From IMG/VR virus record IMGVR_UViG_3300050138_000100, positions 1-50,647 of that record: DNA of 50,647 nt; one strand, written 5' to 3'. The DNA comes from a virus. Lineage: Duplodnaviria > Caudoviricetes. Position 1 is the stretch's first letter, and the number at the start of each line of letters is the position of its first letter. Positions 7,520 to 35,483 of this stretch are shown here, in pieces. The notes under the pieces are model-generated. The model saw nothing but the letters and a program-made list of their open reading frames with translations. It ran no database searches and had not been told where the DNA came from. A program made the position numbers and the translations under genes.

Positions 7520-8942
7520 CTGCCACTAACTCCTTCGGCTTAGCAAACTCGACTTCCTCAGCCAAAAAGCGGCGGACCTGATCGGCGAACGTCTCCTGCC
7601 GGAACTCGGCCTGGTACATGATTTTATACATGCCGTCCTTCATACGCTCGCGCTTCTCGACGGTCAAAATACCATTGTTCAGCTTCACCTTACGATACTT
7701 GCTCAGGCACGTCGTCCGCAAGCCCTTCATGTAATAATAGCGATTCACGCGGCTGGCCTGGTCGTGCACCAAGTCGCCAAACTCCTGGCAGGTGATCGCC
7801 AACATCAGCAGTCGGTTGGCCCGCGCATACTTCTCGAGCGACACGTTAAAGCCGTAATTCTCGAACACGTAGTCCTGCTGCAAGCGGAACATGTGGCTCA
7901 GCATAAACGCGCAGGTCGCAAACACCTTGCCATCGAGCAACATCAAAAAGAAATGCTCGCCGCTGGTTTGACCCAGCTTGTGCGCGAATAAGTCCCGGTA
8001 GTATAGCGCTACGTTGGCTGGGACGGTGACAAAGCTAATCCTGGTATCTTCGGTAATCTCGTCGTCGTCACTGAATAGCGGGGCCTTATATGGCTTGAGC
8101 TCGCGCCGGCCGAACGTGGCGATCTTGTTCAACCCCTTCCAGTCCTTGAGCAGCTCCGGCTTCGTGCAGAGCCAGTAATCTATCTTCTGCACGTTGTACT
8201 GCTTGGCATAAATAACCTGCTCGCTATCAAACCCGGCAACGGACCGGCTGCGATACCACACGAACGGTGCCGGGCTTTTGAGCGTCTGCTCGTACATGTC
8301 GCGGTACTCCTTGCCAAAGCTAAACTCCGGTACGTTCGGGTCAAACTCGATGTCGCTACCGAAGTCAAACATCTTCGTATAGCCGTTACTGAAAACAGGC
8401 GGGTTAACCACAACCAAATCCCCATGTGTATAACGGGCAGTCAAAACTTCGCGCATATCTTGTAGCTCGTACTTGACACCAGCAAAATAAGGCTTCATGG
8501 CCTTGACCTTGCCCTTCAAGATTTCCCGGTGCTTCTCTCCGTTAATCAGCAAATCCTCGAGCTGGGCCTTCATGTAATGCACCTTGCGTATCTGGCATAC
8601 CTTCATCAGCCAGAGCAGATACGCTACGCGCTCGACGTCACTCTGGCAGAGCTGATAATCGTCGAACCACGCGTCACCTACCTTAAACTCGATCTCACGC
8701 ACCTTACGGCCGGCGAAGTAATACCCGAGCAACGTGCTGTACAGCGATATGTCGCTCGTGTAAATATTCTCTTTGGCAAACCCGGCTTCGATCGCGCAGC
8801 GGGCCAGCGTGAACTGACCGACCGCGGGCAAAAATATACGACTGTGGCCCAAGTCATAAAACTGCTTGAGTACAGCCGTCAGATACTTACGCTGATCGGC
8901 GGGGGTATGCCCCAAGAATATGCTCTCGTTTTTACTTACCAT
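7506..8942 (-). CDS. putative DNA-modification protein: adenine-methyltransferase-like N-terminal domain plus a second (possibly GNAT-like) C-terminal domain
   Basis: Motif I-like IFLPAVGQF...TSDIS and motif IV variant VVNPPVF; start moved to ATG 8942 after AGGAGACAACG; next to a ParB-like gene. Confidence 0.6.
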   Translation of the reverse strand: MVSKNESIFLGHTPADQRKYLTAVLKQFYDLGHSRIFLPAVGQFTLARCAIEAGFAKENIYTSDISLYSTLLGYYFAGRKVREIEFKVGDAWFDDYQLCQSDVERVAYLLWLMKVCQIRKVHYMKAQLEDLLINGEKHREILKGKVKAMKPYFAGVKYELQDMREVLTARYTHGDLVVVNPPVFSNGYTKMFDFGSDIEFDPNVPEFSFGKEYRDMYEQTLKSPAPFVWYRSRSVAGFDSEQVIYAKQYNVQKIDYWLCTKPELLKDWKGLNKIATFGRRELKPYKAPLFSDDDEITEDTRISFVTVPANVALYYRDLFAHKLGQTSGEHFFLMLLDGKVFATCAFMLSHMFRLQQDYVFENYGFNVSLEKYARANRLLMLAITCQEFGDLVHDQASRVNRYYYMKGLRTTCLSKYRKVKLNNGILTVEKRERMKDGMYKIMYQAEFRQETFADQVRRFLAEEVEFAKPKELVADVNK

Positions 8943-8956
8943 AAACCGTTGTCTCC

Positions 8957-9032
8957 TGGCTGCGGACAAAGGATTCGAACCTAAGCTTTCTCTGGTTAGA
9001 CCAGAGCGTCCTACCAACTAGACGATTCCGCA
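8957..9032 (-). tRNA. tRNA with CUA anticodon (amber suppressor-like, Gln-type identity elements)
   Basis: 76 nt TGCGGAATCGTCTAGTTGGTAGGACGCTCTGGTCTAACCAGAGAAAGCTTAGGTTCGAATCCTTTGTCCGCAGCCA: D arm GTCT/GGAC, anticodon stem CTCTG/CAGAG, loop GT-CTA-AC, T loop TTCGAAT, encoded CCA; mismatches in the T stem and at 7:66. Confidence 0.8.
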
Positions 9033-9060
9033 ATGTGCGGCGAGGGAACACCGCTGTTAT

Positions 9061-9090
9061 ATTATAGCTCATCTTACTGTGACCTGTCAG
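9061..9090 (-). promoter_or_regulatory. sigma70-like promoter for the tRNA/modification operon
   Basis: CTGACA-18-TATAAT about 30 nt upstream of the tRNA. Confidence 0.55.
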
Positions 9091-9263
9091 CGATCAATAA
9101 CCCGATGATGAACGACAAAACTAGGGCTTTTTTCATACGGCTCCTTTCTGGTTACTAAAATCTCTATGCTCTTACCGAGCTCAATCGGTCGGCTGATCGG
9201 GTGGCGCACCAGTATAGCAAAGCCAAAGCACCACTGTAAAAATCTGTTCTCGAAAACGCCCAT

Positions 9264-9827
9264 TCAGTGCGCCCACTTCGGGTTATGCGGTGGCTTCAAC
9301 GGCTCAACGTCTAACAGCGTAGCCTGTTCGGGTCCGACCGGCTTTGGTGGCTTTGGTGGCTTCGTGTGGACCGGCGGCTTCTCGATTCGTTGATCTGGTT
9401 CGGTCTGCACGATCGACGTCCCGTTCCATAAAATATGCGTCATCGTCATGCGGCGCTTCAAAAACTCCGGCGCTAACATCGACTTCCTGTGACAATCGTC
9501 CGGCTTGCCCTCGCTGCACATTAACGCTATCTGCTCGCCGTTTTGTGCACGCTCGAAAAACTCGTCAATCGTTTCGTCAAAATCGACGTTCCGGCCCAGG
9601 CCGCCCACGTTCTTCCCTCGCAGCTCGTAGCGCATGTCTGCCGCGTCGCAAGCTTCCTGAATGGGGTGAGTATTGAACTGCGGGTGCCAGCGGCTTCCCG
9701 GGCTCGTACGCACGTCGATTAACGTATCAATATTGAATTGTTGCAGCAGCTCGATCAACGCTTCGAGCGGCTTATTGCTATGACCGATTGAAAATATGGT
9801 TGTTTCTGGCACTCGCGCTGTCTCCAT
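9264..9827 (-). CDS. DUF488 family protein
   Basis: IFSIGHSN...LIDVRTSPGSR...PQFN...ALMCSEGKPDDCHR signature; alternative start GTG 9812 after GGAGACAGCG. Confidence 0.85.
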   Translation of the reverse strand: METARVPETTIFSIGHSNKPLEALIELLQQFNIDTLIDVRTSPGSRWHPQFNTHPIQEACDAADMRYELRGKNVGGLGRNVDFDETIDEFFERAQNGEQIALMCSEGKPDDCHRKSMLAPEFLKRRMTMTHILWNGTSIVQTEPDQRIEKPPVHTKPPKPPKPVGPEQATLLDVEPLKPPHNPKWAH

Positions 9828-9840
9828 TTAGTGTAGTTAT

Positions 9841-9869
9841 ATTGTAGCAAAAAAATCACTGTTTTGCAA
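9841..9869 (-). promoter_or_regulatory. sigma70-like promoter
   Basis: TTGCAA-17-TACAAT. Confidence 0.65.
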
Positions 9870-9885
9870 GCTTATTACCCCGGTT

Positions 9886-10095
9886 TCAAGCCTCGACTAA
9901 TACGGATTTATGTTTTTGGTTTTTGTCCGGCTGCCGAGACGCTGCTTTGTGAGAGCCCGGCCCTTTGCCATTTGCGCTAGAATTACTTGTGCTACGCGTC
10001 CGATTGCCATTGTCAGGCTCCTTTAGCTTTTTAGGCTGCTTAACTATTTCGCCTCTCAGTATGAACGTCCTGCGTCCAATAATCAATCCTAACAT
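9886..10095 (-). CDS. small basic hypothetical protein
   Basis: GAGGAGACAGC-ATA-ATG start. Confidence 0.5.
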   Translation of the reverse strand: MLGLIIGRRTFILRGEIVKQPKKLKEPDNGNRTRSTSNSSANGKGPGSHKAASRQPDKNQKHKSVLVEA

Positions 10096-10373
10096 TATGC
10101 TGTCTCCTCTACATTATAGTTATCGCTGACCGTTGCCGGTCGGCTTGTTATTGCACTGCCTACTTTTTTAACCTTTGCCGCGACCTTGCTGATGATCGGC
10201 CACAAACAGGTCGTTATTATTAAAAACGCGCCGACGCCGCCGGTCCAATAGAACGCGGTGTACTGCCCGTGCGACAGCATACCGAACGCTGAGTAAATAG
10301 CGTAAATGCCGGCCAGTAGCACGGCCATCACGAAATACTCCCGGCCGCTGTTTTTGCTTTTGATATTTCCCAC
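10095..10373 (-). CDS. two-TM membrane protein
   Basis: Two hydrophobic helices. Confidence 0.6.
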   Translation of the reverse strand: MGNIKSKNSGREYFVMAVLLAGIYAIYSAFGMLSHGQYTAFYWTGGVGAFLIITTCLWPIISKVAAKVKKVGSAITSRPATVSDNYNVEETA

Positions 10374-10777
10374 GTCGTCTCGTCTCCCAGCTGCTCCTCA
10401 GCCACGAACTTTAGTAACTGCTTGCGCATTGAGCAAAGAATACCATAAGCTTCGGATTCGTAGTAGTCGTCACGCTCGCACGACTGGTACTCCAGGCAGT
10501 CGATCGCGCCGGCTATTTCAGCGATCTTATAGCTCTGATGAGCGCTTTCAATAAACCGGAACTGATATCGCTCGTCACCGTTCGCTTCGTTGTAGCGGTT
10601 GTCGACGCTGCGCACGTTCTCGCGGTGCAAGGCATAGGCCACAGCAGCAGCGTTGTCACGCGTCAAATATATATATTCGTCGTTGACTTTGCACCAAAGT
10701 TTCTGGCTATCGAGCCAGCGGACAAAATAACTGACCAGGACGTTCAGGTGGTCGTCGCTTACCAGATAGGCGCTCAT
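10328..10777 (-). CDS. hypothetical phage protein
   Basis: MSAYLVSDDHL...ENVRSVDNRY...DCLEYQSCE pattern. Confidence 0.7.
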   Translation of the reverse strand: MSAYLVSDDHLNVLVSYFVRWLDSQKLWCKVNDEYIYLTRDNAAAVAYALHRENVRSVDNRYNEANGDERYQFRFIESAHQSYKIAEIAGAIDCLEYQSCERDDYYESEAYGILCSMRKQLLKFVAEEQLGDETTWEISKAKTAAGSIS

Positions 10778-10998
10778 GCGTTATTTACCGTGACCTTTAG
10801 CTTTTTAATCAAGCCTACAACGTCGGCCGTGGCTTGATATTCATCGTACAATTTGGCAATTTCGCCATCGTCACGACTGTTCAACCGGCTAATAGCCTGC
10901 ACCTTGCTCCAATTAGAAGCCTTGTTGGTTTCGTAAATTACGTTCGTTAGCTCGACTACTCTTTTAAGTGTCATCTGCGTGTAGGTTGCTTCGTTCAT
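10774..10998 (-). CDS. hypothetical protein
   Basis: GGAGACAACG-AA-ATG start. Confidence 0.65.
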   Translation of the reverse strand: MNEATYTQMTLKRVVELTNVIYETNKASNWSKVQAISRLNSRDDGEIAKLYDEYQATADVVGLIKKLKVTVNNA

Positions 10999-11032
10999 TT
11001 CGTTGTCTCCATTGTTCTTATGTTTATGTAAT

Positions 11033-11088
11033 TATCATAGCAGCTACACAGTTTTGTGTCAAGTAGATTATCAGGGGTCTGTGGACAA
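11033..11088 (-). promoter_or_regulatory. strong sigma70 promoter with upstream GACCCCTGAT motif and DnaA-box-like TTGTCCACA
   Basis: TTGACA-17-TATGAT; TTGTCCACA at 11080-11088. Confidence 0.75.
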
Positions 11089-11089
11089 T

Positions 11090-11719
11090 TCACGTGCCGT
11101 AATACTTAATCCACTCCAGCGTCACGAAAAGCCGTTCGCAGCGGACCCGTAACCAGTCGCGAATCATCATCAGATCGGCAACCCGAATCGGCACTATGAC
11201 CTTCGCGTAGCCCATAATTTTCTTGTAGTCGTGGTCCCAAAACTCAATCAGGTACACAGCCTTGTCGACCCGAATCCCGTGCGCGTACATCTGGTATGCG
11301 TACACCAGGTGCTGCTTACTCGCCCGGTAATGCTTGACGGTAGTCTCGTAGTCAGATATCGACGTTTTGTAGTCCACGATCGTAGCCTCGGGCTTGCTGA
11401 AAACGTCCGGCCGGCTGTGCAGCACCACGCCTTCGAATATTTCGGTCGCAAACTCGCGCTCGATGTACGTTGCCGGCACTTGGTACTCGCAGGGAAACTC
11501 CTTAAACACCTCTGGCGTGACGCCTGTGTTTTCAGCTTCTTCCTGCCACATCTCGTGCCGCATTGTCCCGAAGTTCATGGGGCCGCCGGTCGGCCGGTAG
11601 CGCTCGGTGATACCTAAATATTCGAGCGCTACCTTATCGACTGAGCCAGGCGTACAGCGGGTCAGGTCCGTATATCTGGTGTGAACCTTGCCGTCATTCT
11701 CCTTCTTGTAATCGGCCAT
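11090..11719 (-). CDS. PD-(D/E)xK exonuclease (RecB/Cas4-like)
   Basis: GTMRHE...E...SRPD...IVDYKT...QHLVYAY motifs; adjacent to a recombinase. Confidence 0.8.
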   Translation of the reverse strand: MADYKKENDGKVHTRYTDLTRCTPGSVDKVALEYLGITERYRPTGGPMNFGTMRHEMWQEEAENTGVTPEVFKEFPCEYQVPATYIEREFATEIFEGVVLHSRPDVFSKPEATIVDYKTSISDYETTVKHYRASKQHLVYAYQMYAHGIRVDKAVYLIEFWDHDYKKIMGYAKVIVPIRVADLMMIRDWLRVRCERLFVTLEWIKYYGT

Positions 11720-12488
11720 CGTCGTCTAAACTTTCACGCGTCAGCGCTTCGTTCTTGGCTTCCAGCTTCGTGCCGGCGCGGGCCCGGGCAGCCAGGGCGG
11801 CCTGGATATCGTTCTTGGTGTGCTCGGTAACAGTCTCGCCGTCAATAAACTTGCGGGCGTCCATCTCCTCACGCACGTACACGCCGCTCACTGAAAATGC
11901 CCGACGCAATGCGTGCGCTTCGGCGACTTTGGCGATCATCGTCTTCGGCTTGCTCCACCACAGCGGCTTCTTCGACTTTTCGGTTTCAGGCGGCTGGTAT
12001 TCCTTGAACGCTACCTCTGAGTACACAGCCCTCGGAAACGACTTATTCCAAACCTTCGCCCAGCCGTACGTCTCCCACTCGCCATCTTCGGGGTCTGACT
12101 TTTTAATCGTTCCGCTCTCGATACCACCGAACATGCCTGATCGGTGTGCAACGCCAAGCAACCCGTCGCGTGTCGTGATATACACAACCGTCCGCTTATC
12201 GGGGTCGTCCTTGCTGTACACGACTGGCACGAGCTCGCCCACTACCGGGTCGAGACCAAACTTGCGGGCCCGGTATAAAAATACCGCGAACTCGTCGTCC
12301 GTCAGCCCTTTGGCGATCTGCTTGCGCATGAGCTGTTTCTGCGTCTCGCTGAACTCGGGAGCGTTTAGCCACCCCTTCGTCGTTCTTTTCTCTCGGCGGA
12401 TTAAGGCTTTGCGCTGCTTGTCACTCTGCTCTGGCAGTGTGCCGGCGGCGCTATTGGCCTCGTCCTCTTGTGCTTCGTCTTCTGACAT
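11694..12488 (-). CDS. bet: Bet/RecT-family single-strand annealing recombinase
   Basis: TDDEFAVFL...GLDP...RDG...AHRSG...W..KPKTMIAKVAEAHALRRAF..SGVY..EEM; start ATG 12488 after AAGGAG. Confidence 0.85.
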   Translation of the reverse strand: MSEDEAQEDEANSAAGTLPEQSDKQRKALIRREKRTTKGWLNAPEFSETQKQLMRKQIAKGLTDDEFAVFLYRARKFGLDPVVGELVPVVYSKDDPDKRTVVYITTRDGLLGVAHRSGMFGGIESGTIKKSDPEDGEWETYGWAKVWNKSFPRAVYSEVAFKEYQPPETEKSKKPLWWSKPKTMIAKVAEAHALRRAFSVSGVYVREEMDARKFIDGETVTEHTKNDIQAALAARARAGTKLEAKNEALTRESLDDDGRLQEGE

Positions 12489-12505
12489 AGCACTCCTTTC
12501 GATTA

Positions 12506-12703
12506 TGATCAAAAACTAAACCAGCACACGTCGGAGCGGAAGGGCTCACTTGACGTTCGGCTCACTCGGGGTTTACGAGAATGTGGGGTTCCTTGCGGAA
12601 ACCTTACCAATCCTTAACGCCCATGCCGGCCTAGTCACTGATCGCTTGTTAAAGTACCTGCTGCTAAGCAGGCTACCGGCGAGCATGTTTGCCTACTCGC
12701 CAG
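12506..12703 (-). ncRNA. candidate structured RNA in the bet leader
   Basis: Two hairpins, a boxA-like GTACTTTAACAA, then a 13-bp stem enclosing three hairpins, one with a GCAA tetraloop. Confidence 0.5.
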
Positions 12704-12711
12704 AAGTCTAC

Positions 12712-12966
12712 CTATAACTGCAACTCTCCGCCGTTCCAGCCGTCACCCTCTATGTTGACAGCGCCGCAGCCATCGCACACGTCGGCCGGGCGGACAGAAT
12801 CAAGCCAGTCCATCTCGCCGTTGCGGTCCAGGCCGACGCCGCCAAAATCAATATCCTCGTTGTGCGTGCTGGCGTGGTTGCAGTCGATTAGCGTGCCGTC
12901 TTCGTAGGTCCTGACGATGACGCCTTCGTCGTACGTGAATTGCTGTTTTACTTCGATTGTTTTCAT
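12712..12966 (-). CDS. acidic, possibly Zn-binding hypothetical protein
   Basis: CNH...CDGC; GGAGACAACG start. Confidence 0.65.
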   Translation of the reverse strand: MKTIEVKQQFTYDEGVIVRTYEDGTLIDCNHASTHNEDIDFGGVGLDRNGEMDWLDSVRPADVCDGCGAVNIEGDGWNGGELQL

Positions 12967-12995
12967 AGCGTTGTCTCCATTAATACTATAGTCTT

Positions 12996-13024
12996 ATAGT
13001 ATCAAGCGTACCCCTGTTTGTCAA
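12996..13024 (-). promoter_or_regulatory. sigma70 promoter with CAGGGGTAC in the spacer
   Basis: TTGACA-17-TACTAT. Confidence 0.7.
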
Positions 13025-13254
13025 GGGGATTTTGGTTTATTTGGGCTACCGGCCCGGCTGCTCAATCGCCCGCCTTTTGCACCGGCAATTTTAGCCAACT
13101 CGCGGTTAACTGCGAATCCGTGCGGCCGGCGGTTCTCGCGGGCCTCGGGCGACCATGCTTTTTGCCCTAGCTTCACGTAAAAATCAGCCCCGTAAGTATC
13201 TTTGATTTCCTGCGCGGCCAATAATCCGCCTTCTCTACTTCCTGCCATTGTCAA
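13021..13254 (-). CDS. KGG-repeat stress-induced-like protein
   Basis: MAGSREGG...DFYVKLGQK...GFAVNRELAKIAGAKGGRLSSR. Confidence 0.75.
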   Translation of the reverse strand: MTMAGSREGGLLAAQEIKDTYGADFYVKLGQKAWSPEARENRRPHGFAVNRELAKIAGAKGGRLSSRAGSPNKPKSP

Positions 13255-13553
13255 TCTCCTTCGGTTATTTTAATTTCGCCCTTAGCCTTTTCAATGTCGG
13301 CGGCCGCGCCGACGGGGTCGAACTTGTACTGGTCCTTCTCGGCAATCTTGCCCTCGCTGACCAGTCGGTGGTATTCGCCGATCATAAACTTCAACCCGCC
13401 GCCTAGTTCGGCCGTCGTGCCTATGACGTCTTCCGTCGGCATACCGAGCGTCTTGAAATGCGTCGCGATGATCGCCAGAAAATCCGACATGTAGTACCTA
13501 AGCTCCTCGATATTCTCCGGGCGGCCCGCTGGGTTTGCCTGCTTGTCTGCCAT
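13251..13553 (-). CDS. hypothetical protein
   Basis: AAGGAGAC RBS, ATG 13553. Confidence 0.6.
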   Translation of the reverse strand: MADKQANPAGRPENIEELRYYMSDFLAIIATHFKTLGMPTEDVIGTTAELGGGLKFMIGEYHRLVSEGKIAEKDQYKFDPVGAAADIEKAKGEIKITEGD

Positions 13554-13753
13554 TAAAACAGTCTCCTTTGCCCGCGTATCTGTTCGAGATACACGCACTT
13601 AAACTTTTTACTTCGACGCATAATTTCATACCTAGCAATCACGGCGACACTGTGGTCGCTGAACGTAACCAGGCGGACCTGTTCTTCGTCAAGCAGCACT
13701 TCCGGCAGTATCGAGCCTTCGATTTCTACCTTCGTCCACTTACGCTTGCTCAT
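13553..13753 (-). CDS. hypothetical protein
   Basis: TAATG-coupled ORF. Confidence 0.55.
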   Translation of the reverse strand: MSKRKWTKVEIEGSILPEVLLDEEQVRLVTFSDHSVAVIARYEIMRRSKKFKCVYLEQIRGQRRLF

Positions 13754-14169
13754 TAGCGCCTGGTTACTTTGCGCCAGACCTGATCAAATGCGTCTTCGAC
13801 TACGTCCCAAAACTTGTCGACCCGGGTTTTGCCGGTCAGCCTGCCTTCCGCAACCCTGTCCCTGGCTCCTTCGGCTTCCATATAGCTAGGCCTGGCGGCG
13901 TCGAGCTTGGTGTCGTGAGTATTCACAAACCTAGCGACGTGGTCGTCGAGCTTGGCTATCATCGCCTCGCTGTTAGCTAGGCGTGTGTGTACGGAGCCGC
14001 CGATGGCGTACACTCGGTACTTGTTCGTGATAGGCCCGTACTTTAACTGATTAGGCTTACCTAACCTGTTAAACCAGGTTAGCGTTTTGTGATATGCGTC
14101 TTGCAGCTCTGACGCGACGACCGGGCGGCTGAACCCGCCGTTGCTCATTGCAAACTTGTACTTTGCCAT
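13753..14169 (-). CDS. hypothetical protein
   Basis: Promoter TTGCAT-17-TACAAT and GGAGACAACG-CT-ATG. Confidence 0.7.
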   Translation of the reverse strand: MAKYKFAMSNGGFSRPVVASELQDAYHKTLTWFNRLGKPNQLKYGPITNKYRVYAIGGSVHTRLANSEAMIAKLDDHVARFVNTHDTKLDAARPSYMEAEGARDRVAEGRLTGKTRVDKFWDVVEDAFDQVWRKVTRR

Positions 14170-14239
14170 AGCGTTGTCTCCGTTTACTGTTAGTGCTTAT
14201 ATTGTAGCTTAAACGGTAACGGTATGCAAATTATAAACG

Positions 14240-14302
14240 GCCGATCGTTTCGCCTCTGGAGACAACGACTTAAAAAGAGGTTGAAAGGCAGCCACGATCG
14301 GC
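14240..14302 (-). ncRNA. hairpin RNA candidate displaying the complement of the GGAGACAACG start motif in its loop
   Basis: Outer stem GCCGATCGT/ACGATCGGC, inner stem CCTCT/AGAGG, 18-nt loop (minus strand TTTTAAGTCGTTGTCTCC). Confidence 0.6.
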
Positions 14303-14303
14303 A

Positions 14304-14852
14304 CTATCCTATTTTACCATTAAGCTCCGACTTATTAACCAACCAGAGTAGTATTCTCGTCAGCTCGTCCGACTTATCTTCACGCATATCGGTAATTGTC
14401 CTATACCAGGACCCGCCGAAAACCAGCTCGAACAGCGCCGGCTGCCAGCGGCCTTTATCGGCGTGTACTACCGGCACGTGCACCGCGTCGCATAGGCAAA
14501 TCAGATTCCACTGCTCGTTGCACTCATGCTCGGACAGGTAAATGATATGGTGGGCGTGCCGGCGGATTCCACAGACGTGCGGGACCACGCCTACTAACTG
14601 GCAGACGTAATTTACGCGCTGTTTGCACTCAAGCTTGGCTGCGGTTCGCTCGGCTGGCTCGGCCGGTTTGCGATGAAGTCGCGGATTAGCGGTTCGCGGT
14701 TTCGCATGGGCTGCGTACCTTTTGGTTGCAGCGCCTTTGCGAGCGCAAGCAGGAGAGCAATAGCGATCGGTTGACCGATACGGCCGAAATTCATTCGGGC
14801 ACTCCCTACATTTTTTTAATTTAACTTGCGGTGTCTCCATAAATGTTTTCAC
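14304..14852 (-). CDS. HNH endonuclease with N-terminal Cys cluster (NinG-like architecture)
   Basis: CRECP...YCSPAC; CQL...HAHHIIY...NEQWNLICLCDAVH. Confidence 0.75.
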   Translation of the reverse strand: MKTFMETPQVKLKKCRECPNEFRPYRSTDRYCSPACARKGAATKRYAAHAKPRTANPRLHRKPAEPAERTAAKLECKQRVNYVCQLVGVVPHVCGIRRHAHHIIYLSEHECNEQWNLICLCDAVHVPVVHADKGRWQPALFELVFGGSWYRTITDMREDKSDELTRILLWLVNKSELNGKIG

Positions 14853-14897
14853 CTATCTGAACATTAGCATATTACAAACTCCGGTACAATGTGATTT

Positions 14898-15107
14898 TTA
14901 TTCGGCGGGTTCAATCGGCACAAGCTCAACCATCGTATCGAGCAAACTGTCGATAATCGCCATCGACTTCTCGGCGCCATGCTGGTCGGCGATATCCTTC
15001 GCTGCTATCCAAGTCCAGCGTTCAGCTTCAATCGCGTTAATAATTACTTCGCGGCCGTCGTCAACCTCAACCATTTTGTATGCTCTCCGGCAGCTCCACG
15101 CCTTCAC
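14898..15107 (-). CDS. hypothetical protein
   Basis: ORF in operon; start uncertain. Confidence 0.5.
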   Translation of the reverse strand: MKAWSCRRAYKMVEVDDGREVIINAIEAERWTWIAAKDIADQHGAEKSMAIIDSLLDTMVELVPIEPAE

Positions 15108-15258
15108 CGACGTGATAAGCCGGAGTGCTCCACTCGCTGCTGACTATCGTGCAACCGAACTCGCCGAGCTTCTGCACGTGTTCCGGCTCCGCCTGGCGGC
15201 GCATGGCTTCTTCGGCTTCCTGCTCCTTTAACTCTTTAGCACGATTGTAGGGTTTCAT
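15067..15258 (-). CDS. hypothetical protein
   Basis: ORF in operon. Confidence 0.5.
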   Translation of the reverse strand: MKPYNRAKELKEQEAEEAMRRQAEPEHVQKLGEFGCTIVSSEWSTPAYHVGEGVELPESIQNG

Positions 15259-15530
15259 ACAACCATTTTATCACGGCGGCACAATCCCGCCTTTCCCCTG
15301 CTAGGCTTTGGTGAAGTTGAAAACTATTATCTGTAGCGTTTGAGCGACTTAACCCGATTTAGCTTCCCCAACCATACGGCCGTCTCGTGGTGTCGTTGCG
15401 TGTGCTCTGCAGATGGCCCGGGTGACGTAGCAGGCGGTCGTAGTATCAGAGCCGGGACTAAAGCACAGCACGCGATCATTACGTCTTTGTTGTCAGGAGA
15501 TCGTACAACTCCTTTTTGCTACCGATATAT

Positions 15531-15619
15531 TTGCAAAAGTAAACAAGCCGTGATAAACTGAAAGCTCAGTCACGTTTCGTAATTTAAGAACTTCGCGTCA
15601 ACGAGGTTCTTTTTCTTTT
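15531..15619 (+). ncRNA. candidate ~55-nt antisense RNA (interval includes its promoter and terminator)
   Basis: Plus-strand TTGCAA-17-TAAACT (15531-15559); terminator stem AAGAACTTCG/CGAGGTTCTT followed by T-rich run. Confidence 0.55.
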
Positions 15620-15691
15620 ACGCCTGTTATAAAACAGTCACGTTCCATAATCAGGTCATTCAATATTAGCACAAGCTGCCCCAGCGGCAAG

Positions 15692-16171
15692 TTAGATTAC
15701 GTTGTTCTGGTTATACTTCGCGTACTGGGCCTGCGTGTCGAGCTGCTTTTCGATCAGCGTGGCCTGCTTACGGACGCTGGTAAACATGTCGTCAAAATAT
15801 CCCCATATCACCTTCGCGGCTTCGTGATCTGCCCTGGCTTGAATTAACGCCATCTCTGCCTCGATAACTTCCTTCTGTTCGAGCACCCAGGCTTTGCGGT
15901 CGGCGTCGCTTGATAACTCCAACACTTCTTTTTTAGCGACCGCGATCATCTGCTGCTTCGCCATTACCCGTTTCAGATCGAACTCGGCCTGCTGCAACTT
16001 GCTACGGCTGCTATGCACGAGTTTTGACGCCTCTACTTTCTGTCGAGGTAATCTCGTTAGTTGAAACGTGATTTGCGCCTGAGACAGGCCCTGCGTAGCT
16101 TTAACGACCTGTTTGATCGTGCTTATACTGCTCTGAATATCCAGCGGCTTGTTGCGCTTCTTGTCTGCCAT
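15692..16171 (-). CDS. coiled-coil hypothetical protein
   Basis: GGAGACAACG-CA-ATG start; helical heptads. Confidence 0.7.
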   Translation of the reverse strand: MADKKRNKPLDIQSSISTIKQVVKATQGLSQAQITFQLTRLPRQKVEASKLVHSSRSKLQQAEFDLKRVMAKQQMIAVAKKEVLELSSDADRKAWVLEQKEVIEAEMALIQARADHEAAKVIWGYFDDMFTSVRKQATLIEKQLDTQAQYAKYNQNNVI

Positions 16172-16192
16172 TGCGTTGTCTCCTTGAGCTGG

Positions 16193-16498
16193 CTAGGCTT
16201 TTTGCTGCTGCACTATAGCAGCGACTTCGGCGTCAGTCTTCAACACGTCCATCGGGTAGGACCGGTTGCTGCCATCGTAGCCGATAACAGTCGCTTCTGC
16301 GCTGTCGGCTGAAACAGCAATGACTTCCGAGCGCCGGTAGCCGCTTTCGCTCTCCGCGTGCTTATAACTCGCGTAGTCGCCAACCTTGAACTTGGCGCTG
16401 CCAGCCTGATTGCTCGGTTCGTCGTTCTTGCCTTCGTCCGAGTAATTTGCGCCAGTACCTGGCTTCGGGTCTTTGTTGTCTTGGCTATCGTCGCGCAT
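16193..16498 (-). CDS. hypothetical protein, possible SH3-like beta domain
   Basis: GGAGACGAC RBS; KFKVGDYASY...EVIAV. Confidence 0.6.
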   Translation of the reverse strand: MRDDSQDNKDPKPGTGANYSDEGKNDEPSNQAGSAKFKVGDYASYKHAESESGYRRSEVIAVSADSAEATVIGYDGSNRSYPMDVLKTDAEVAAIVQQQKA

Positions 16499-16533
16499 AA
16501 TGTCGTCTCCTTGCTTAATCAATAACTCTTAGC

Positions 16534-17127
16534 TTACACTACTCGCTTCTTCTGAACAATCCGCGTGCCAGGCACGGCAATGCCGGGCTTCTTGTTATCG
16601 CCGGACTTGATACCGAGCACGTCGGTCCGCAGCTTGCCGTGGTCGATCGTCCAATACTTGCGCGGGATTTTGGTTTCGTCGGCTACCACAACGTCGGTAA
16701 ACGTCGTAATCGACACGCCCGGCTCGCTGGTCGTCAACGTATCGAGCTTCTCCATCATCTCCAGCGCTTTGTCCGGCGTGATCTCGGCGTTCTCCAGCTT
16801 TTGCTGAATCTCCTCGATCTTTGCCGCGTTCTTGCCTTCGTACTGATTCACGAACTCTGTCAGCTGCTTCTGGATAGTGCTTTTGGCTGAGCCTAGCTCC
16901 TGTTCCAGCGGCTTAAACATGCCCGTGAAGGTTTTGAGGGCTTCGTTCATAGGCTTGGTTACGGCCTCTTTCTTGGCCTTGACCTGCTTCTCGAAATGCT
17001 TGGCGTGCGCGAAGATTTTCAGCCCTTCGTGAAACGCGGCCGGCGTCCCGATTTTTTTCGGGACCACAATCTCTTTCGACTGCGTCTCGAGCTCGACCAA
17101 TTCTTGCTTAACTTTGTCTCCTGCCAT
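16534..17127 (-). CDS. Gp157/Gam-like coiled-coil phage protein
   Basis: C-terminal VVVADETKIPRKYWTID...VPGTRIV; GGAGACAACG-CT-ATG at 17127. Confidence 0.55.
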   Translation of the reverse strand: MAGDKVKQELVELETQSKEIVVPKKIGTPAAFHEGLKIFAHAKHFEKQVKAKKEAVTKPMNEALKTFTGMFKPLEQELGSAKSTIQKQLTEFVNQYEGKNAAKIEEIQQKLENAEITPDKALEMMEKLDTLTTSEPGVSITTFTDVVVADETKIPRKYWTIDHGKLRTDVLGIKSGDNKKPGIAVPGTRIVQKKRVV

Positions 17128-17184
17128 AGCGTTGTCTCCTTGTTTAACTTCTTTCATTATAGCACACGCGTCCCTGTTAATCAA

Positions 17185-17370
17185 TTACTGATATTTGTCG
17201 ACCAGCTCCCTAACAATTTTTGCGAGCGCTTCGATCTTGGCTTCTAAAATACCGTGTAACTCGCCTAGCGTTTTGCCGTCAAACTCTTTGCCGTCAAACT
17301 CTTTTGCGTCAGTTTTACAGTCCTCTATTATCAGATCTAGCACCCTGAGCGTATCAGTTTTACTCGCCAT
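17185..17370 (-). CDS. hypothetical protein
   Basis: ORF with GAGG RBS. Confidence 0.55.
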   Translation of the reverse strand: MASKTDTLRVLDLIIEDCKTDAKEFDGKEFDGKTLGELHGILEAKIEALAKIVRELVDKYQ

Positions 17371-17502
17371 CTTTAACCTCTACCAATTCCCAGCCCGGTC
17401 CGTAACCTGACGTATTGCCTTGCTCGATCAAGTCAGCGATTCGTCGCAAACAGTCAGGCCAGTCTACGATCGGGCCTTCGTCTAAAATGCTAATGCTGTA
17501 GC

Positions 17503-17838
17503 TCATGCGTAAACCACCTCTCCGAACAGCGCCAGCTGCACGATACAGTCAGCGTCAGCAGCGTCCATATCGTCGAAATTACTACGATCGTAAAGCTCCA
17601 CGCCTTTCAAAAACTTCTTGAGCGTCAGCGTCAGCCATTTTTCATCTTCGGTATCGTATATTTTTATCTTGCTACCGCGCGTTAAGCACTCACTGATAGC
17701 CGTAGCGCCCTCTGGCATTTTTGACGGCACAATATCAACGGTGCTGGCCCAATAGCTAATGCCACTATACAGCGCAGCGTCGAGCACATTGTCAACCTGC
17801 TCTGACGTAATCGTCTTCGTAAAACTATGCTTTTTCAT
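17503..17838 (-). CDS. hypothetical phage protein
   Basis: GISYWA...DAADADCIVQLALFGEVVY pattern. Confidence 0.7.
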   Translation of the reverse strand: MKKHSFTKTITSEQVDNVLDAALYSGISYWASTVDIVPSKMPEGATAISECLTRGSKIKIYDTEDEKWLTLTLKKFLKGVELYDRSNFDDMDAADADCIVQLALFGEVVYA

Positions 17839-17992
17839 ACCAGCTCGCTTTCATGATTAACACCCTGCCTGTATAATTCGTCCACCAACCAGCCAGCAGA
17901 AGCGCGATCAGCGCCGCTACCTACCAGTTCGTCTTCACTGTTAAAGACTAGCCACTCACCTCTGTCCTCTTGTAGTCTGTAGCCTTTGTAAT

Positions 17993-18175
17993 TCATGCTA
18001 TCGCCTCTCTGACTTCTTGAACTATGTTCATAGCGACGGCGTCGACCACACCGCTGTAATCTGAAAAGGTTAATTCTCCCAGATCGCCTGCCCGGTCTTG
18101 GGCGATAAGCTCATGAATTTGCTCGGCCACTTTGTTGACCAATAAAGCTGATTCTACTACCTGTGTTGCTGTCAT
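17993..18175 (-). CDS. hypothetical protein
   Basis: GGAGACAACG-AC-ATG. Confidence 0.65.
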   Translation of the reverse strand: MTATQVVESALLVNKVAEQIHELIAQDRAGDLGELTFSDYSGVVDAVAMNIVQEVREAIA

Positions 18176-18214
18176 GTCGTTGTCTCCTTTGATACTGCTT
18201 ATGTTTATACTTAT

Positions 18215-18243
18215 ATCATATCAAGCAGTACCCCTGTTGTCAA
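18215..18243 (-). promoter_or_regulatory. sigma70 promoter with CAGGGGTAC in the spacer
   Basis: TTGACA-17-TATGAT. Confidence 0.75.
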
Positions 18244-18248
18244 GGGTT

Positions 18249-18965
18249 TTATACCTGTGAATCGAACTTTACGGCAACGGCCCGGCTGTGCCAGCCGACG
18301 TCTTTCGGACCGTCCTTTTGAGCCCACGCGCTGAACGCGTACATAGCCTCGAAGTCGATCTGCCCGAACTTGCCGATTTTCTTGAGCCACCAGAGCATAC
18401 TGTTGTGGTTCAAATGCCCGTGATCGCCGTCGGTATCATGCGCCTGGTCCGGCGATGTGCTGCCATTTGCAATAAAGAAGCCGTAACGGGCGTGCTGGGC
18501 CATGAAATGCAACACCCGGTCGACGTCTTCATTCATAATGTGCTCCAGGAATTCACACGCTGTCACCAGGTCGACTTTAGCCGGCGTTTGGTATTTCCAT
18601 GTGTCTCCGTCCAAAGCGTCGCCTATAGACACTCTACGTGCGTCGGCTGGTGTGATTCGGCTCAGCCGGTCCTTTGCCTTCAAAATTGCGTATTCGCTGA
18701 CGTCGAAGCCGGTGGCGTCGATATCGTTATCCAAAAACTCGCTGACGCTGAACCCGTACGCGCAGGCCACGTCAACCGCGCTGCCGATCGGCCCGTGCTT
18801 CTCGCGCACCGTCCTGATGATTGCCTTGTAAAGCATGCGGACGATCTGCTCAGTCGTCGAGTAATCGGCGTAGCCGCTGATAGTGCCGGCTTCAAAATAG
18901 TCCCGGCCATAAACTTTCGGATCGTACTTCCGGGCGTAATTATGTTCGTGCTTGTCTGCCATCAC
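18249..18965 (-). CDS. class I SAM-dependent methyltransferase
   Basis: Motif I AVDVACAYG, GFDVSEYA, DLVTACEFLEHI. Confidence 0.85.
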   Translation of the reverse strand: MMADKHEHNYARKYDPKVYGRDYFEAGTISGYADYSTTEQIVRMLYKAIIRTVREKHGPIGSAVDVACAYGFSVSEFLDNDIDATGFDVSEYAILKAKDRLSRITPADARRVSIGDALDGDTWKYQTPAKVDLVTACEFLEHIMNEDVDRVLHFMAQHARYGFFIANGSTSPDQAHDTDGDHGHLNHNSMLWWLKKIGKFGQIDFEAMYAFSAWAQKDGPKDVGWHSRAVAVKFDSQV

Positions 18966-19497
18966 CTATCGCCTTTCTTATTTCTACATCGTCTAGCATA
19001 TCAGATATCTTAGACTGCCGGTGCGCGCTTTTTAGTTCTTCTTCGCTAGGCTCGCGCATGTCTTTGGCGTCGTATTCGCTGTGCGGTAAATACAGATTGT
19101 GCTTCATCGCAAACGCACCAGGTAAATCTTTCAATATTCGAGCTTTCTCCTTGCGGTACGCTACCTGGTAAACTGCAAAAGCGTTCGCTGTCTCGATATA
19201 GCGCGCGGCAGTGCACGTAAAATAAATCCATAGTCGGTTTCTCGAGTAGCCCAAAATTATATGTTCGCGCGTCACTGCATACTTCGCTATCACATGAGCT
19301 AGAACATTAGCTTCACCTTTGTCGATCGCGTTCAAGCGGTACTCCTTCACTGCAACGCTGTTCATAACGTCGTCGTAATCAAGATTCTTCTCGGCACACA
19401 TTTTCTTGACCAGCCTGATAGCCGTCTCGCGCTCGCCGCCAACGCCTTGCTTCGCCAGCTCGATAATTTTCAGTGTCCGGTCGTCAATATCTTCCAT
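18940..19497 (-). CDS. hypothetical protein, DUF2786-like N-terminus
   Basis: LKIIELAKQGVGGERETAIRLVKKMC. Confidence 0.55.
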   Translation of the reverse strand: MEDIDDRTLKIIELAKQGVGGERETAIRLVKKMCAEKNLDYDDVMNSVAVKEYRLNAIDKGEANVLAHVIAKYAVTREHIILGYSRNRLWIYFTCTAARYIETANAFAVYQVAYRKEKARILKDLPGAFAMKHNLYLPHSEYDAKDMREPSEEELKSAHRQSKISDMLDDVEIRKAIGDGRQART

Positions 19498-19506
19498 AAT
19501 TCCAGC

Positions 19507-19737
19507 TTACCTTCCTTCGTATTTCTTGGCTACCGCTTCGTGGTTAACCTGGCTCAATGCCTGCACCGCAAAGCCAAAGTACGCGGCGTCGGCCACTGTA
19601 TGCTGCCTCGGTTTATCAGCCAACTCGTTGCCGAGCTCCTGCATAAGCGCGTGCGCGATCTCAACCTGTTCCTTGAACGGTAGGCCGCGTAGCAGCGACT
19701 TGCAGGTGTGCTCGATGACTGTTTTGTCTTTCGCCAT
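19507..19737 (-). CDS. hypothetical protein
   Basis: Probable start MAKDKT at 19737, just after the upstream stop. Confidence 0.55.
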   Translation of the reverse strand: MAKDKTVIEHTCKSLLRGLPFKEQVEIAHALMQELGNELADKPRQHTVADAAYFGFAVQALSQVNHEAVAKKYEGR

Positions 19738-19738
19738 A

Positions 19739-19852
19739 TCAGTACCCCGCGTCCTCGAGCAGGTGCTCGATCTCGTCTTCTGGAAAATCCATTGCTTCCA
19801 GCTCGGCTCGGATAGCCTCGGCCGTTTCGGTTTCGATATCTTGCTCACTCAT
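19739..19852 (-). CDS. acidic mini-protein (37 aa)
   Basis: Manual translation MSEQDIETETAEAIRAELEAMDFPEDEIEHLLEDAGY*. Confidence 0.55.
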   Translation of the reverse strand: MSEQDIETETAEAIRAELEAMDFPEDEIEHLLEDAGY

Positions 19853-19982
19853 CGCAGTCAGCCCCTAACATGTTGTCGATGTCGGCTTCGCTCAAGCCCT
19901 GGGCCCGTAGCTCGCTCTCGATCAGTTCGGCGGTCGATGGCTCAGCTTCTGCTGTCAACCCGCCTTCAAATAAATATTCCAT
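19845..19982 (-). CDS. acidic mini-protein (45 aa)
   Basis: TGCTATAAT promoter plus GGAGACAACG-CA-ATG; MEYLFEGGLTAEAEPSTAELIESELRAQGLSEADIDNMLGADCDE*. Confidence 0.65.
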   Translation of the reverse strand: MEYLFEGGLTAEAEPSTAELIESELRAQGLSEADIDNMLGADCDE

Positions 19983-20027
19983 TGCGTTGTCTCCTTGACT
20001 TCTTTAATTATAGCACTTTACTATCTG

Positions 20028-20369
20028 TTAGTCACTAGTTACGCGACCACCATAGACGGCCGACAGCAGCGGTATTAGCGCCGAAGCCGGAGCCTTGAGC
20101 TTGCCTATGTTACGCAGCACTCGGTAAACGCTTACTGTGCCGTCAGTCTCCCATATAGTCAGGCGCGTACCCCGGAAGCTGTCGATCTTAATAGCAGCTA
20201 TCTCAACGTTGCTGATGAGCCTTTTGCGGTTCATTATACTGGTCGGGGCTTTCAGATGGACGTCACCATTTTCGTAAAAATAGATCACGCAGTCACCTCT
20301 CGCTATAGACCCGAACTTCTTGCCATTGCTGTATTCGCACCTGGCGCGGTTTACATAAATTGTTTTCAT
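20028..20369 (-). CDS. hypothetical beta-rich protein
   Basis: GGAGACAGCG-ATG. Confidence 0.65.
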   Translation of the reverse strand: MKTIYVNRARCEYSNGKKFGSIARGDCVIYFYENGDVHLKAPTSIMNRKRLISNVEIAAIKIDSFRGTRLTIWETDGTVSVYRVLRNIGKLKAPASALIPLLSAVYGGRVTSD

Positions 20370-20491
20370 CGCTGTCTCCTTATTGGGCCAGCAATAGCCA
20401 CATGAACACGTAACTTACTGCTGCACCGATTGTTACTTTTCCCCACTCTTTTGCTGTCAATCCTAAAATCATTTTGTTCTCCATTTTTATG

Positions 20492-20707
20492 TTAGCGTAG
20501 CTCTTTGAACGTCAGCGGTCGGTACTTTTTATTGTACTTCTTGGCGATCAACTCGCCGCGCCGGTTCATTTCGTTAATTAAAACCATCGCCTTAGCCTTG
20601 TAAATCTCGTACGGTAGGCCCACGCTGCTGCGTCTGAGTGTCTCAAACATCTCGCGTAGCTCGCCGCCGGATAACTCGGTTAAATTGATGGTTTTGGTCT
20701 GTTCCAT
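20492..20707 (-). CDS. hypothetical protein
   Basis: GGAGACAACG-CACT-ATG. Confidence 0.65.
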   Translation of the reverse strand: MEQTKTINLTELSGGELREMFETLRRSSVGLPYEIYKAKAMVLINEMNRRGELIAKKYNKKYRPLTFKELR

Positions 20708-20744
20708 AGTGCGTTGTCTCCTTATCTTTTATGTTTATATATAA

Positions 20745-20808
20745 ATCATAGCAGACATGCACATTGTGTCAAGGGTAATATCAGGGGTCAGAATACTTCT
20801 GTGGACAA
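20745..20808 (-). promoter_or_regulatory. first early promoter, with GACCCCTGAT and DnaA-box-like TTGTCCACA
   Basis: TTGACA-16-TATGAT; TTGTCCACA at 20800-20808. Confidence 0.7.
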
Positions 20809-20811
20809 ATG

Positions 20812-20843
20812 AAAAACGAGCCAACCCCTCGAGGTCAGCTCAT
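20812..20843 (-). terminator. intrinsic terminator ending the late/lysis operon
   Basis: GAGCTGACC...GGTTGGCTC followed by GTTTTT. Confidence 0.7.
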
Positions 20844-20884
20844 TTCCCTACCAAAACCCGAGAGCAGGGTCGATTCTGCTCACA
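20812..20884 (-). ncRNA. candidate ~70-nt sRNA
   Basis: Promoter TTGACT-17-TAGAAT (20918-20890), hairpin GAGCAG/CTGCTC, then terminator; no ORF. Confidence 0.45.
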
Positions 20885-20919
20885 AGGCCATTCTAGGTAG
20901 ATTTCATGTGAAAGTCAAC

Positions 20920-21201
20920 CTACACTTTAGGCGGTAGCTGCGCACCTGGACTGGCGGCTGGCGTAACGGCAGCGACAGCCGGCTTTTTGTCGTGCGTAAA
21001 GTACGCAGCGGCAAAATGCACCAGGCTAACCAGGGCGACACCGCCGGCTAGTATCTGCGTGATATTATCCTGAAAATTAACCGGCAACTGTACGCCGAGA
21101 GCGCTAGCTACTACTACTACGGCGGTCAGGATTAAACCTGTGACGCCGACGGCCTGGACTTTTGGCACAGGCGCTTTTGATGGCTGTTGATATGGTTGCA
21201 T
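20920..21201 (-). CDS. holin
   Basis: Two TM helices, directly downstream of the endolysin. Confidence 0.75.
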   Translation of the reverse strand: MQPYQQPSKAPVPKVQAVGVTGLILTAVVVVASALGVQLPVNFQDNITQILAGGVALVSLVHFAAAYFTHDKKPAVAAVTPAASPGAQLPPKV

Positions 21202-21211
21202 ATTTAACTCC

Positions 21212-21913: not shown

Positions 21914-21930
21914 TGAACCTTCATTATACG

Positions 21931-35330: not shown

Positions 35331-35483
35331 GTTGTCTCCGTTCATTTCCTTGATTATATCATAAGTTGCTGCTGGCTAGGCAGCTGGGGGTCGGTTCCCC
35401 GTGACAGCGACATCAGCTGTTGGCTGTCATACACCGTGCCTATGTCACTATAGCAAATGCTCTATGTAACTTCTATGTCAACT

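Follow-up and report, generated by a model that had tools for sequence, protein, structure and literature searches.

A candidate phage small RNA whose loop is complementary to the genome's own extended Shine-Dalgarno motif

Introduction

The principle of an RNA that displays in a loop the complement of a Shine-Dalgarno (SD) sequence is already known. The candidate considered here comes from a tailed phage (IMG/VR virus record IMGVR_UViG_3300050138_000100), which was analysed over its whole length of 50,647 bp, referred to below as the window. It is a hairpin at positions 14240–14302, next to the stop codon of an HNH endonuclease gene, and it carries the complement of an SD motif that precedes a set of mostly early genes of the same phage.

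Most of the regulatory RNAs described from phages belong to temperate ones, and as a rule each has a single target. The C4 RNA of phages P1 and P7 is cut from the operon transcript that it controls, acts on one operon (icd/ant) and serves temperate-phage immunity. C4 is described as a small structured phage RNA that blocks translation through loop sequences base-pairing around a ribosome-binding site, with a specificity that co-evolves with its target. The proposed element would resemble it in these respects, and the CI RNA of phage P4 is similar. Unlike C4, the element has a promoter box of its own, about 7–15 dispersed targets per genome, no sign of lysogeny and no match to the C4 family of Rfam.

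Cellular small RNAs (sRNAs) offer further parallels. RNAIII and the Rsa RNAs of Staphylococcus aureus use C-rich loops to pair with the SD regions of many mRNAs. The 6C RNA of Mycobacterium tuberculosis also resembles the element, in that a loop-exposed CUCC-type sequence pairs with the G-rich SDs of multiple mRNAs, possibly without a chaperone. These RNAs are cellular and use short generic seeds, whereas the element is phage-encoded, has a 9–12-nt seed and is directed at a private SD extension of the phage's own genes.

The position of the element is reminiscent of two other groups. In sRNAs of the DapZ/MicL type, which derive from 3' untranslated regions (3'UTRs), the promoter is embedded in the final codons of the upstream open reading frame (ORF), as it appears to be in the element, and the RNA shares the 3' end region of that gene; however, they are cellular, Hfq-dependent and carry single-stranded seeds, whereas the element is phage-encoded. 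The omega RNA (HEARO) of IscB and the right-end RNA of TnpB are structured RNAs associated with HNH or RuvC nucleases and encoded beside or overlapping the end of a small nuclease gene. These are much larger scaffolds with a variable guide, and the HNH protein described here lacks the domains of IscB and TnpB.

A functional analogue at the protein level is found in phage T4, where RegB and RegA shut off many early genes post-transcriptionally through their initiation regions, as the proposed RNA would, and the strong RegB sites share a common extended SD consensus, GGAGRAYARAA. In T4 the recognising factors are proteins, in the present proposal an RNA; of the 31 window proteins scanned, none was noticed to be related to RegA or RegB. 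The sRNAs of phage PAK_P3 were considered as a further case of ribosome-binding-site targeting and dropped as a parallel, as their published description contradicts the idea.

An extended Shine-Dalgarno motif with one inverted copy

The motif GGAGACAACG occurs in ten exact copies on the minus strand, which carries nearly all genes of the window, and in one copy on the plus strand (14258–14267); read backwards, it is found on neither strand. Allowing up to one mismatch gives 18 matches (17 minus, 1 plus), compared with 3.55 ± 1.83 in shuffled sequence, and 0 of 100 shuffles reached 18. Nine of the ten exact gene-strand copies end 2–4 nt upstream of an ATG, and seven of the ten lie downstream of a scan-called sigma-70-like promoter on the minus strand. 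These counts on both strands bear out the initial annotation, which had reported a motif in gene orientation before many genes and a single copy in the opposite orientation.

While the distance from motif to start codon is fixed (2–4 nt), that from the −10 box to the motif is variable (12–27 nt), indicating that the motif acts at the RNA level. It is a translation signal consisting of GGAG and a conserved spacer; a role as a DNA operator was considered and rejected, as it would leave the fixed distance to the start codons unexplained. Most of the genes that carry the motif lie in the early region (7.5–20.7 kb) and encode small proteins without an assigned function; the exception is one glycosyltransferase-like gene. 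The exact gene-strand copies are:

8947–8956, minus: SD motif of gene 7506–8942, directly after the 3' end of a tRNA(CUA)
11001–11010, minus: SD motif of gene 10774–10998; 12 nt of contiguous complementarity to the predicted RNA
12969–12978, minus: SD motif of gene 12712–12966
14172–14181, minus: SD motif of gene 13753–14169, just downstream of the predicted RNA and its nearest predicted target
16174–16183, minus: SD motif of gene 15692–16171
17130–17139, minus: SD motif of gene 16534–17127
18178–18187, minus: SD motif of gene 17993–18175; 12 nt of contiguous complementarity to the predicted RNA
19985–19994, minus: SD motif of the small gene 19845–19982
20712–20721, minus: SD motif of gene 20492–20707
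35330–35339, minus: copy at the start of the glycosyltransferase-like gene, overlapping a GTG and following an in-frame ATG; its SD role is ambiguous

The hairpin and the predicted small RNA

The inverted copy lies within a stable hairpin that is separated from the HNH stop codon by 1 nt. The perfect 9-bp outer stem that had been annotated from the sequence, GCCGATCGT (14240–14248) with ACGATCGGC (14294–14302), is present. The minus-strand RNA folds at −28.0 kcal/mol, compared with −15.7 ± 2.6 kcal/mol for shuffled sequences (z −4.72; 0 of 200 as good), and the plus-strand RNA at −23.4 kcal/mol (z −2.64). The interior differs from the initial annotation: in place of an inner CCTCT/AGAGG stem and an open 18-nt loop, the minimum-energy fold pairs GCCUUU with AGAGGC and CAAC with GUUG, so that the free bases of the segment complementary to the motif (the anti-motif) are UCUCC and UC only, with a mean unpaired probability of 0.6. 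The features of the locus are:

14304–14840, minus: HNH endonuclease gene, stop codon 14304–14306; the protein has an N-terminal zinc ribbon like that of NinG
14311–14338, minus: predicted small-RNA promoter, scan-called; −35 TTAATA (14338–14333), 16-nt spacer, −10 TAAAAT (14316–14311)
14240–14302, minus: predicted small-RNA body; 9-bp outer stem (14302–14294 with 14248–14240) and 45-nt interior
14258–14269, minus: anti-motif GUCGUUGUCUCC, complement of GGAGACAACG(AC); sole inverted motif copy in the genome
14228–14239, minus: U-rich tail CGUUUAUAAUUU, read from the sequence as a possible weak intrinsic terminator
14201–14229, minus: promoter of the next gene, TTGCAT-17-TACAAT in a register read by eye; the scan called TTTGCA-18-TACAAT (14230–14201)

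The −10 box of the small-RNA promoter is preceded by TG (14319–14318), and the promoter lies inside the last HNH codons. Contigs from four peat-metagenome DNA runs over 13700–14900 are identical to the window where they cover it, apart from a single C>T difference at 14531 in one low-depth contig; the hairpin is without variation.

The element was also compared with described RNA families. When 13900–14600 was scanned with cmscan at E values up to 10, only a chance match to snoR14 was returned (17.3 bits, against a gathering threshold of 40). At gathering thresholds, the Rfam scan of the window and of the related contigs L118–L121 returned only tRNA, with the matches lying away from the element, and no family, C4 included, matched the element itself.

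A side observation concerns the interior next to the 3' arm (14249–14257, minus), which ends in AGAGGCGAA, the exact reverse complement of the 9-nt loop segment in one relative (L127). It is the sense form of the SD motif of the relatives, placed where these have their anti-motif. The match may be due to chance, since this 9-mer has a second occurrence on the gene strand (10056).

Conservation of the element in relatives

No close relative of the window was found among deposited phages. Megablast and blastn searches of the phage collection with 13000–17000, and tblastn with a 710-aa window protein, returned zero relatives, and scanning viral contigs with single proteins, namely the HNH protein and the 138-aa protein encoded downstream, likewise gave none. 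A large-terminase search identified three genomes at about 50% identity (G001–G003) and a distant one (G004). Of these, G002 encodes an HNH homologue with 38% identity, and its stop codon is directly followed by a 10–11-bp stem with a 14-nt loop and then by five consecutive U. Within the loop is the sole inverted copy of that genome's own SD motif, GGAGGCGA (10 forward, 1 reverse). An exhaustive profile search for the HNH subfamily yielded 11 representatives below E 1e-30, and scans of viral and metagenome contigs with subfamily alignments added G005/L118, G006/L119, G007/L121, L125, L124/L126 and L127. The resulting six independent lineages are the window genome (G000); G002; G005/L118; G006/L119 with L125; G007/L121 with L124/L126; and L127.

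The element stands right after the HNH stop codon in 6/6 lineages with this HNH subfamily, and all loci whose HNH protein aligns over most of its length (35–47% identity to that of the window) carry it. No such element follows the gene of the more distant HNH/NinG-like homologues (L114–L117, L122, L128–L132 and L134–L137); L133 ends before the stop codon, and L138–L141 (4 of the 19 metagenome loci) lie outside this comparison. The gene immediately downstream of the element differs among lineages.

The anatomy of the element is shared by the six lineages. A −10-like hexamer (TAAAAT, TATAAT, TATGAT, TATTAT, TATAAT or TATGAT) overlaps the end or stop codon of the HNH gene. In five of the six a TGnTAnnnT box, which has a genome-wide frequency of 0.0009–0.0019 per nt, ends 3–9 nt before the stem; in the remaining lineage TATAAT is found at 7 nt. 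The outer stem is 8–14 bp long and different in sequence in every lineage. It encloses an interior or loop of 14–45 nt (45 in the window, 14–39 in the relatives) with 0–2 small hairpins, and the anti-motif sits at the 3' side of this interior, at a distance of 0–2 nt from the 3' arm, or of 9 nt in the case of the window. In G002 and L127 the stem runs straight into a U-tract, which is weak in the window, while a separate sense-strand terminator is called 20–60 nt further on in L118, L119 and L121; L127 has a second one. A sigma-70-like promoter and the next gene come after the element. It does not combine the GC-rich stem, 3–8-nt loop and immediate U-run of an intrinsic terminator. The orientation of these signals favours the minus-strand transcript, as had been suggested initially, with the −10 box 3–9 nt before the stem and the U-tracts or terminators on the sense strand.

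In G005 and G006 (L118 2889–2943; L119 5542–5596) the outer stem encloses an interior folded into three small hairpins, which resembles a cloverleaf in outline, and the anti-motif segment GGAUUCGCCUCC can form a 3-bp mini-hairpin of its own. A likeness to tRNA was considered and discarded, as ARAGORN found no tRNA in L118, L119, L120, L121 or L127 and in the window only the tRNA(CUA) at 8957–9032.

Pattern searches were also made. The pattern GGAGACAACGCTATG in viral contigs gave 89 stretches (L009–L097) with one motif copy each (two in L096), which were put down to chance. Of 78 loci with GGATTCGCCTCCGCC, only two had at least three gene-sense motif copies, namely the already known G005 and G006, and none of nine loci with TCGTTGTCTCCAGAGG had more than one motif in gene orientation, leaving the window's type so far a singleton.

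Some repeats in the terminase relatives stand apart from the element. G001 (L102–L104) has a long start motif of its own, AAAGGAATCAGCC(A)ATG (e.g. 23632, 26943 and 28190), with GGAATCAGC occurring five times on the gene strand; the one inverted copy, at 38935, was rejected as an analogue of the anti-motif, being located within an ORF and lacking both hairpin and promoter. In the distant, GC-rich G004 (L111–L112) the palindromic 12-mer CTAATCGATTAG occurs five times (e.g. 87–99, 6447, 13993 and 18518). In the structural-gene region of G003 (L108–L110; 2603–15872, plus) TGTCGGAG occurs seven times opposite the genes and is probably a repeated coding feature.

Co-variation of stem, loop and motif

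The initial annotation had proposed that related phages might carry a conserved hairpin whose loop follows the start motif of each phage, and this is what is seen in all six lineages, where the stems have diverged and each loop matches its own genome's motif. In five lineages, UUCGCCUC(C/U) in the loop pairs with GGAGGCGAA; the loop reads UUCGCCUCC (UUCGCCUCU in L127), and the genes use (A)AGGAGGCGAA, often followed by TCC, so that up to 12 nt are complementary to GGAUUCGCCUCC. In the window, loop CGUUGUCUCC pairs with GGAGACAACG. Consequently, there are two seed/motif types, each seed being complementary to its targets and changing with them, as is expected of the conserved seed of a base-pairing sRNA. 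The numbers of motif copies per genome are:

G000 (window genome): 10 in gene orientation; 1 inverted, in the loop
G002: 7 in gene orientation; 1 inverted, in the loop
G005: 15 in gene orientation; 1 inverted, in the loop
G006: 14 in gene orientation; 1 inverted, in the loop
G007: 7 in gene orientation; 1 inverted, in the loop

Backwards-read controls across these five whole genomes gave 0–1. An unbiased scan that ranked gene-strand k-mers by their reverse-complement repeats put the loop at the top for k = 9 in both G000 and G002 and for k = 10 in G000; the top 9-mer and 10-mer of G000 are the anti-motif, with 10 targets.

The stem is maintained while its sequence changes. Across the six lineages the eight innermost pairs are paired in 48/48 cells, with 2–4 pair types at positions 4–8, whereas slid-partner controls gave 10–23 paired of 36–48 cells. 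These counts come from a script anchored on the anti-motif and not from a covariance model, because MAFFT alignments of the elements left the stems out of register. The anatomy of the element, its conservation beside the HNH gene and the co-variation of loop and motif lead to the conclusion that a segment of the RNA is under selection to pair with the extended SD of the phage.

Energetics and targets

The anti-motif/motif duplex has a computed energy of −14.0 to −15.9 kcal/mol (−15.9 in the window), compared with −6.4 and −9.7 kcal/mol for a generic anti-SD core with the two motifs. Opening the whole anti-motif would cost about 5.3 kcal/mol in the window and 0.4–3.0 kcal/mol in the relatives. 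Contiguous complementarity of at least 10 nt to the RNA is present in 9 of 78 heuristic initiation regions and in 2 of 3302 background windows, and the two background windows may belong to the small gene at 19985, missed by the gene caller. Contiguous complementarity was used in place of RNAduplex, as the latter did not discriminate: with the 45-nt interior against 42-nt leaders, 69/78 leaders and 1910/2410 background sequences scored −14 kcal/mol or lower.

Proposed function

The reading preferred here, to which a probability of roughly 60% is attached, is that the element encodes a small RNA that is transcribed from a promoter of its own and acts in trans by occluding the SD of about ten mostly early phage mRNAs. 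Transcription would start from the extended −10 promoter in the last HNH codons, 1–3 nt before the stem, and end at the stem and U-rich tail, giving an RNA of about 65–75 nt in the window. Estimated from coordinates, the RNAs of the relatives would be about 45–130 nt long, or about 160 nt in L127 if read to the second terminator. The RNA would display 10–12 nt (GUCGUUGUCUCC) complementary to the private extended SD motif GGAGACAACG. Its targets would be about ten genes, small for the most part, and the majority of these open a unit with a host-type promoter. Pairing is expected to cover the SD and spacer of the target mRNAs and thereby exclude the 30S subunit, such that the motif-bearing genes would be turned down jointly as the RNA accumulates, an RNA counterpart of the early shut-off by RegA and RegB.

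We infer transcription, pairing in vivo and the repressive sign of the effect; repression is proposed because of established sRNA biology and by analogy with P1 C4, 6C-type sRNAs and T4 RegB/RegA. The initial annotation had already suggested a 3'UTR-derived or processed sRNA that silences a gene set by pairing with its SD regions. Its view of the element as an sRNA is supported by the co-variation, whereas processing from a 3'UTR need not be assumed, as the RNA probably has its own promoter overlapping the end or stop codon of the HNH gene, which by prediction is what a trans-acting base-pairing sRNA would have. The complementarity to a gene set on which the silencing idea was built stands, and silencing itself would follow from it by analogy.

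Several points weigh against this proposal. Among the sequencing runs on record that contain the window, none is an RNA run, the DNA runs being peat metagenomes. A two-hexamer promoter scan calls the RNA promoter in only 2/6 lineages, because the −35 boxes are poor; the weight was therefore placed on the conserved extended −10 box. The terminator scan of the window did not call the U-rich tail, as the loop exceeds 8 nt, and only a weak U-tract is present. In the computed minimum-energy fold the window anti-motif is partly paired (GUUG with CAAC). The stems were located by a stem search anchored on the anti-motif, which biases the counts toward pairing, and since only the window has the second motif type, the co-variation between types reflects just one evolutionary switch. 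The terminase relatives G001 and G003 have neither the HNH gene nor an anti-motif hairpin, and as G001 nevertheless has an extended SD motif, such a motif does not by itself need such an RNA. Finally, the lineages share partial synteny, so the link between HNH gene and RNA may be simple inheritance.

A full-text literature search, with most subscription journals outside it, found no phage RNA complementary to a genome-wide SD motif, and the available part of a 2025 review of phage sRNAs describes none. What appears to be new is a phage RNA, conserved beside an HNH gene, that is directed against a private SD motif used across the genome, RNA and motif evolving together. If correct, the proposal would describe an RNA with which phages that show no sign of lysogeny act on a whole group of their own genes by way of a private ribosome-binding-site extension. 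The long identical SD-plus-spacer motifs kept by some phages would then be accounted for, and the early shut-off that T4 achieves with proteins would have an equivalent made of RNA. The pair of a 10–12-nt leader tag and an RNA of about 60 nt would be compact and orthogonal, and could be used for switching gene sets. Comparing loops with SD motifs would also be a workable route to regulatory RNAs in uncultivated phage genomes.

Alternative explanations

It is possible, though rather unlikely, that the same pairing between RNA and motif has another outcome, either the protection or activation of mRNAs (e.g. by shielding the SD from an RNase) or the exclusion of superinfecting relatives that share the motif. 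The anatomy and the co-variation are equally compatible with these outcomes, as they do not fix the sign of the effect, and a review relates the loop-displayed sequences of c4 RNA, which block translation, to the heteroimmunity of P1 and P7. Pairing over an SD and its spacer, however, nearly always inhibits initiation in established sRNA biology. A role in lysogenic immunity is without support, since no integrase or repressor was found among 31 proteins of the window genome compared with PHROGs (8 also with Pfam; the sampling was not exhaustive) and no relative of the HNH gene, no host and no prophage copy was found in 185,579 bacterial and archaeal genomes.

An action in cis, whether by folding back onto the SD of the next gene in a read-through transcript, which would restrict translation of that gene to mRNA from its own promoter, or by pairing with the start of the HNH mRNA and so limiting the nuclease, is unlikely. 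The next downstream gene has the motif or a near copy in 6/6 lineages, and GGAGACACCG overlaps the HNH start codon in the window, as this explanation would suggest. Nevertheless, the element is separated from the next SD by a promoter and by either a terminator or a U-tract, and a 161-nt read-through RNA is predicted to keep the local hairpin while leaving the next SD unpaired with the element. The HNH leaders are without the shared motif (G005 has none; G006, G007 and L127 have ordinary SDs), and the loop fits the motif consensus better than it fits any HNH leader.

Alternatively, the RNA could be a cofactor or guide of the adjacent HNH nuclease, directing cleavage of motif-bearing nucleic acid, which seems improbable. 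HNH gene and RNA are linked in 6/6 lineages while the downstream gene differs, and the RNA starts where the nuclease gene ends; this linkage may, however, be inherited synteny. At the DNA level a guide matching 7–15 sites in its own genome would be self-destructive. The protein likewise argues against such a role. At 160–180 aa it comprises a zinc ribbon and an HNH domain and has no recognisable RNA-binding module, and its matches in the Protein Data Bank (PDB) are generic HNH cores. Among solved structures, McrA and Cas8f-HNH fusions have the closest HNH domains, and the match to IscB covers the generic HNH core only (E 0.0046). A variant given similarly low odds takes HNH protein and RNA as one unit, in which the anti-motif would guide the nuclease to phage transcripts or R-loops that carry the SD motif. 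If true, it would be a minimal RNA-guided HNH system with which the phage destroys early messages, either its own or those of relatives that infect the same cell and share the motif. Such a system would be the RNA-programmed counterpart of T4 RegB.

That the element is a mere transcription terminator of the HNH gene, with a loop sequence due to chance or a relic, is very improbable. Its position right after the stop codon and the U-rich sequence that follows would suit a terminator. By contrast, the loop stays constant over 9–12 nt while the stem diverges and the HNH protein falls to 35–47% identity, and it switches together with the SD motif of the genome; moreover, three lineages have a separate terminator further on, and loops of 14–45 nt are far above the usual size. 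Hardly credible, finally, is the plus-strand decoy for a motif-binding factor raised in the initial annotation: the TTAAAC-17-TATAAA sequence is indeed present and the plus strand folds well (z −2.64), but with the end of the −10 box 1 nt ahead of the stem a start about 7 nt further on would fall within and cut the 5' arm, the minus strand folds better, and the promoter box, U-tracts and terminators of the relatives are all gene-sense.

The HNH protein and the surrounding genome

The HNH gene product matches the PHROGs family phrog_144 HNH (E 2.8e-7). In Pfam, the window protein matches only NinG, at 21.6 bits and thus under the cut-off of 25.4, whereas 14 of 18 subfamily members match HNH (PF01844). 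H97, H98, N112 and H126 are invariant, and together with the HNH profile match these conserved His and Asn residues support the HNH assignment. The window phage was identified as tailed from its large terminase, portal and head-decoration-like protein.

The early region (8000–22000, minus) is made up of dense short units, each with a strong host-type promoter (TTGACA, 16–17 nt, TGnTATGAT) and the motif, and promoter-like sites are correspondingly frequent at 8–22 kb (24, compared with 11.4 ± 3.0 expected). Some of the −35 boxes lie within small hairpins, e.g. CCCCTTGACAAACAGGGG at about 13011–13028. The tRNA at 8957–9032 (minus) has the anticodon CUA and would read amber codons; ARAGORN labels it tRNA-Pyl, and it scores 37.6 bits with the Rfam tRNA model. 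Its 3' end is directly followed by a motif copy and the 478-aa gene 7506–8942. TAG is the stop codon of 14/78 heuristic genes, the HNH gene included, and consequently there is no sign of genome-wide recoding.

Two further loci on the minus strand were observed. A second HNH endonuclease (7052–7519, phrog_826) adjoins a protein with a ParB-like nuclease domain (6294–7055), and a recombination pair of RecT and a PD-(D/E)XK protein is located at 11694–12512 and 11090–11719, respectively.

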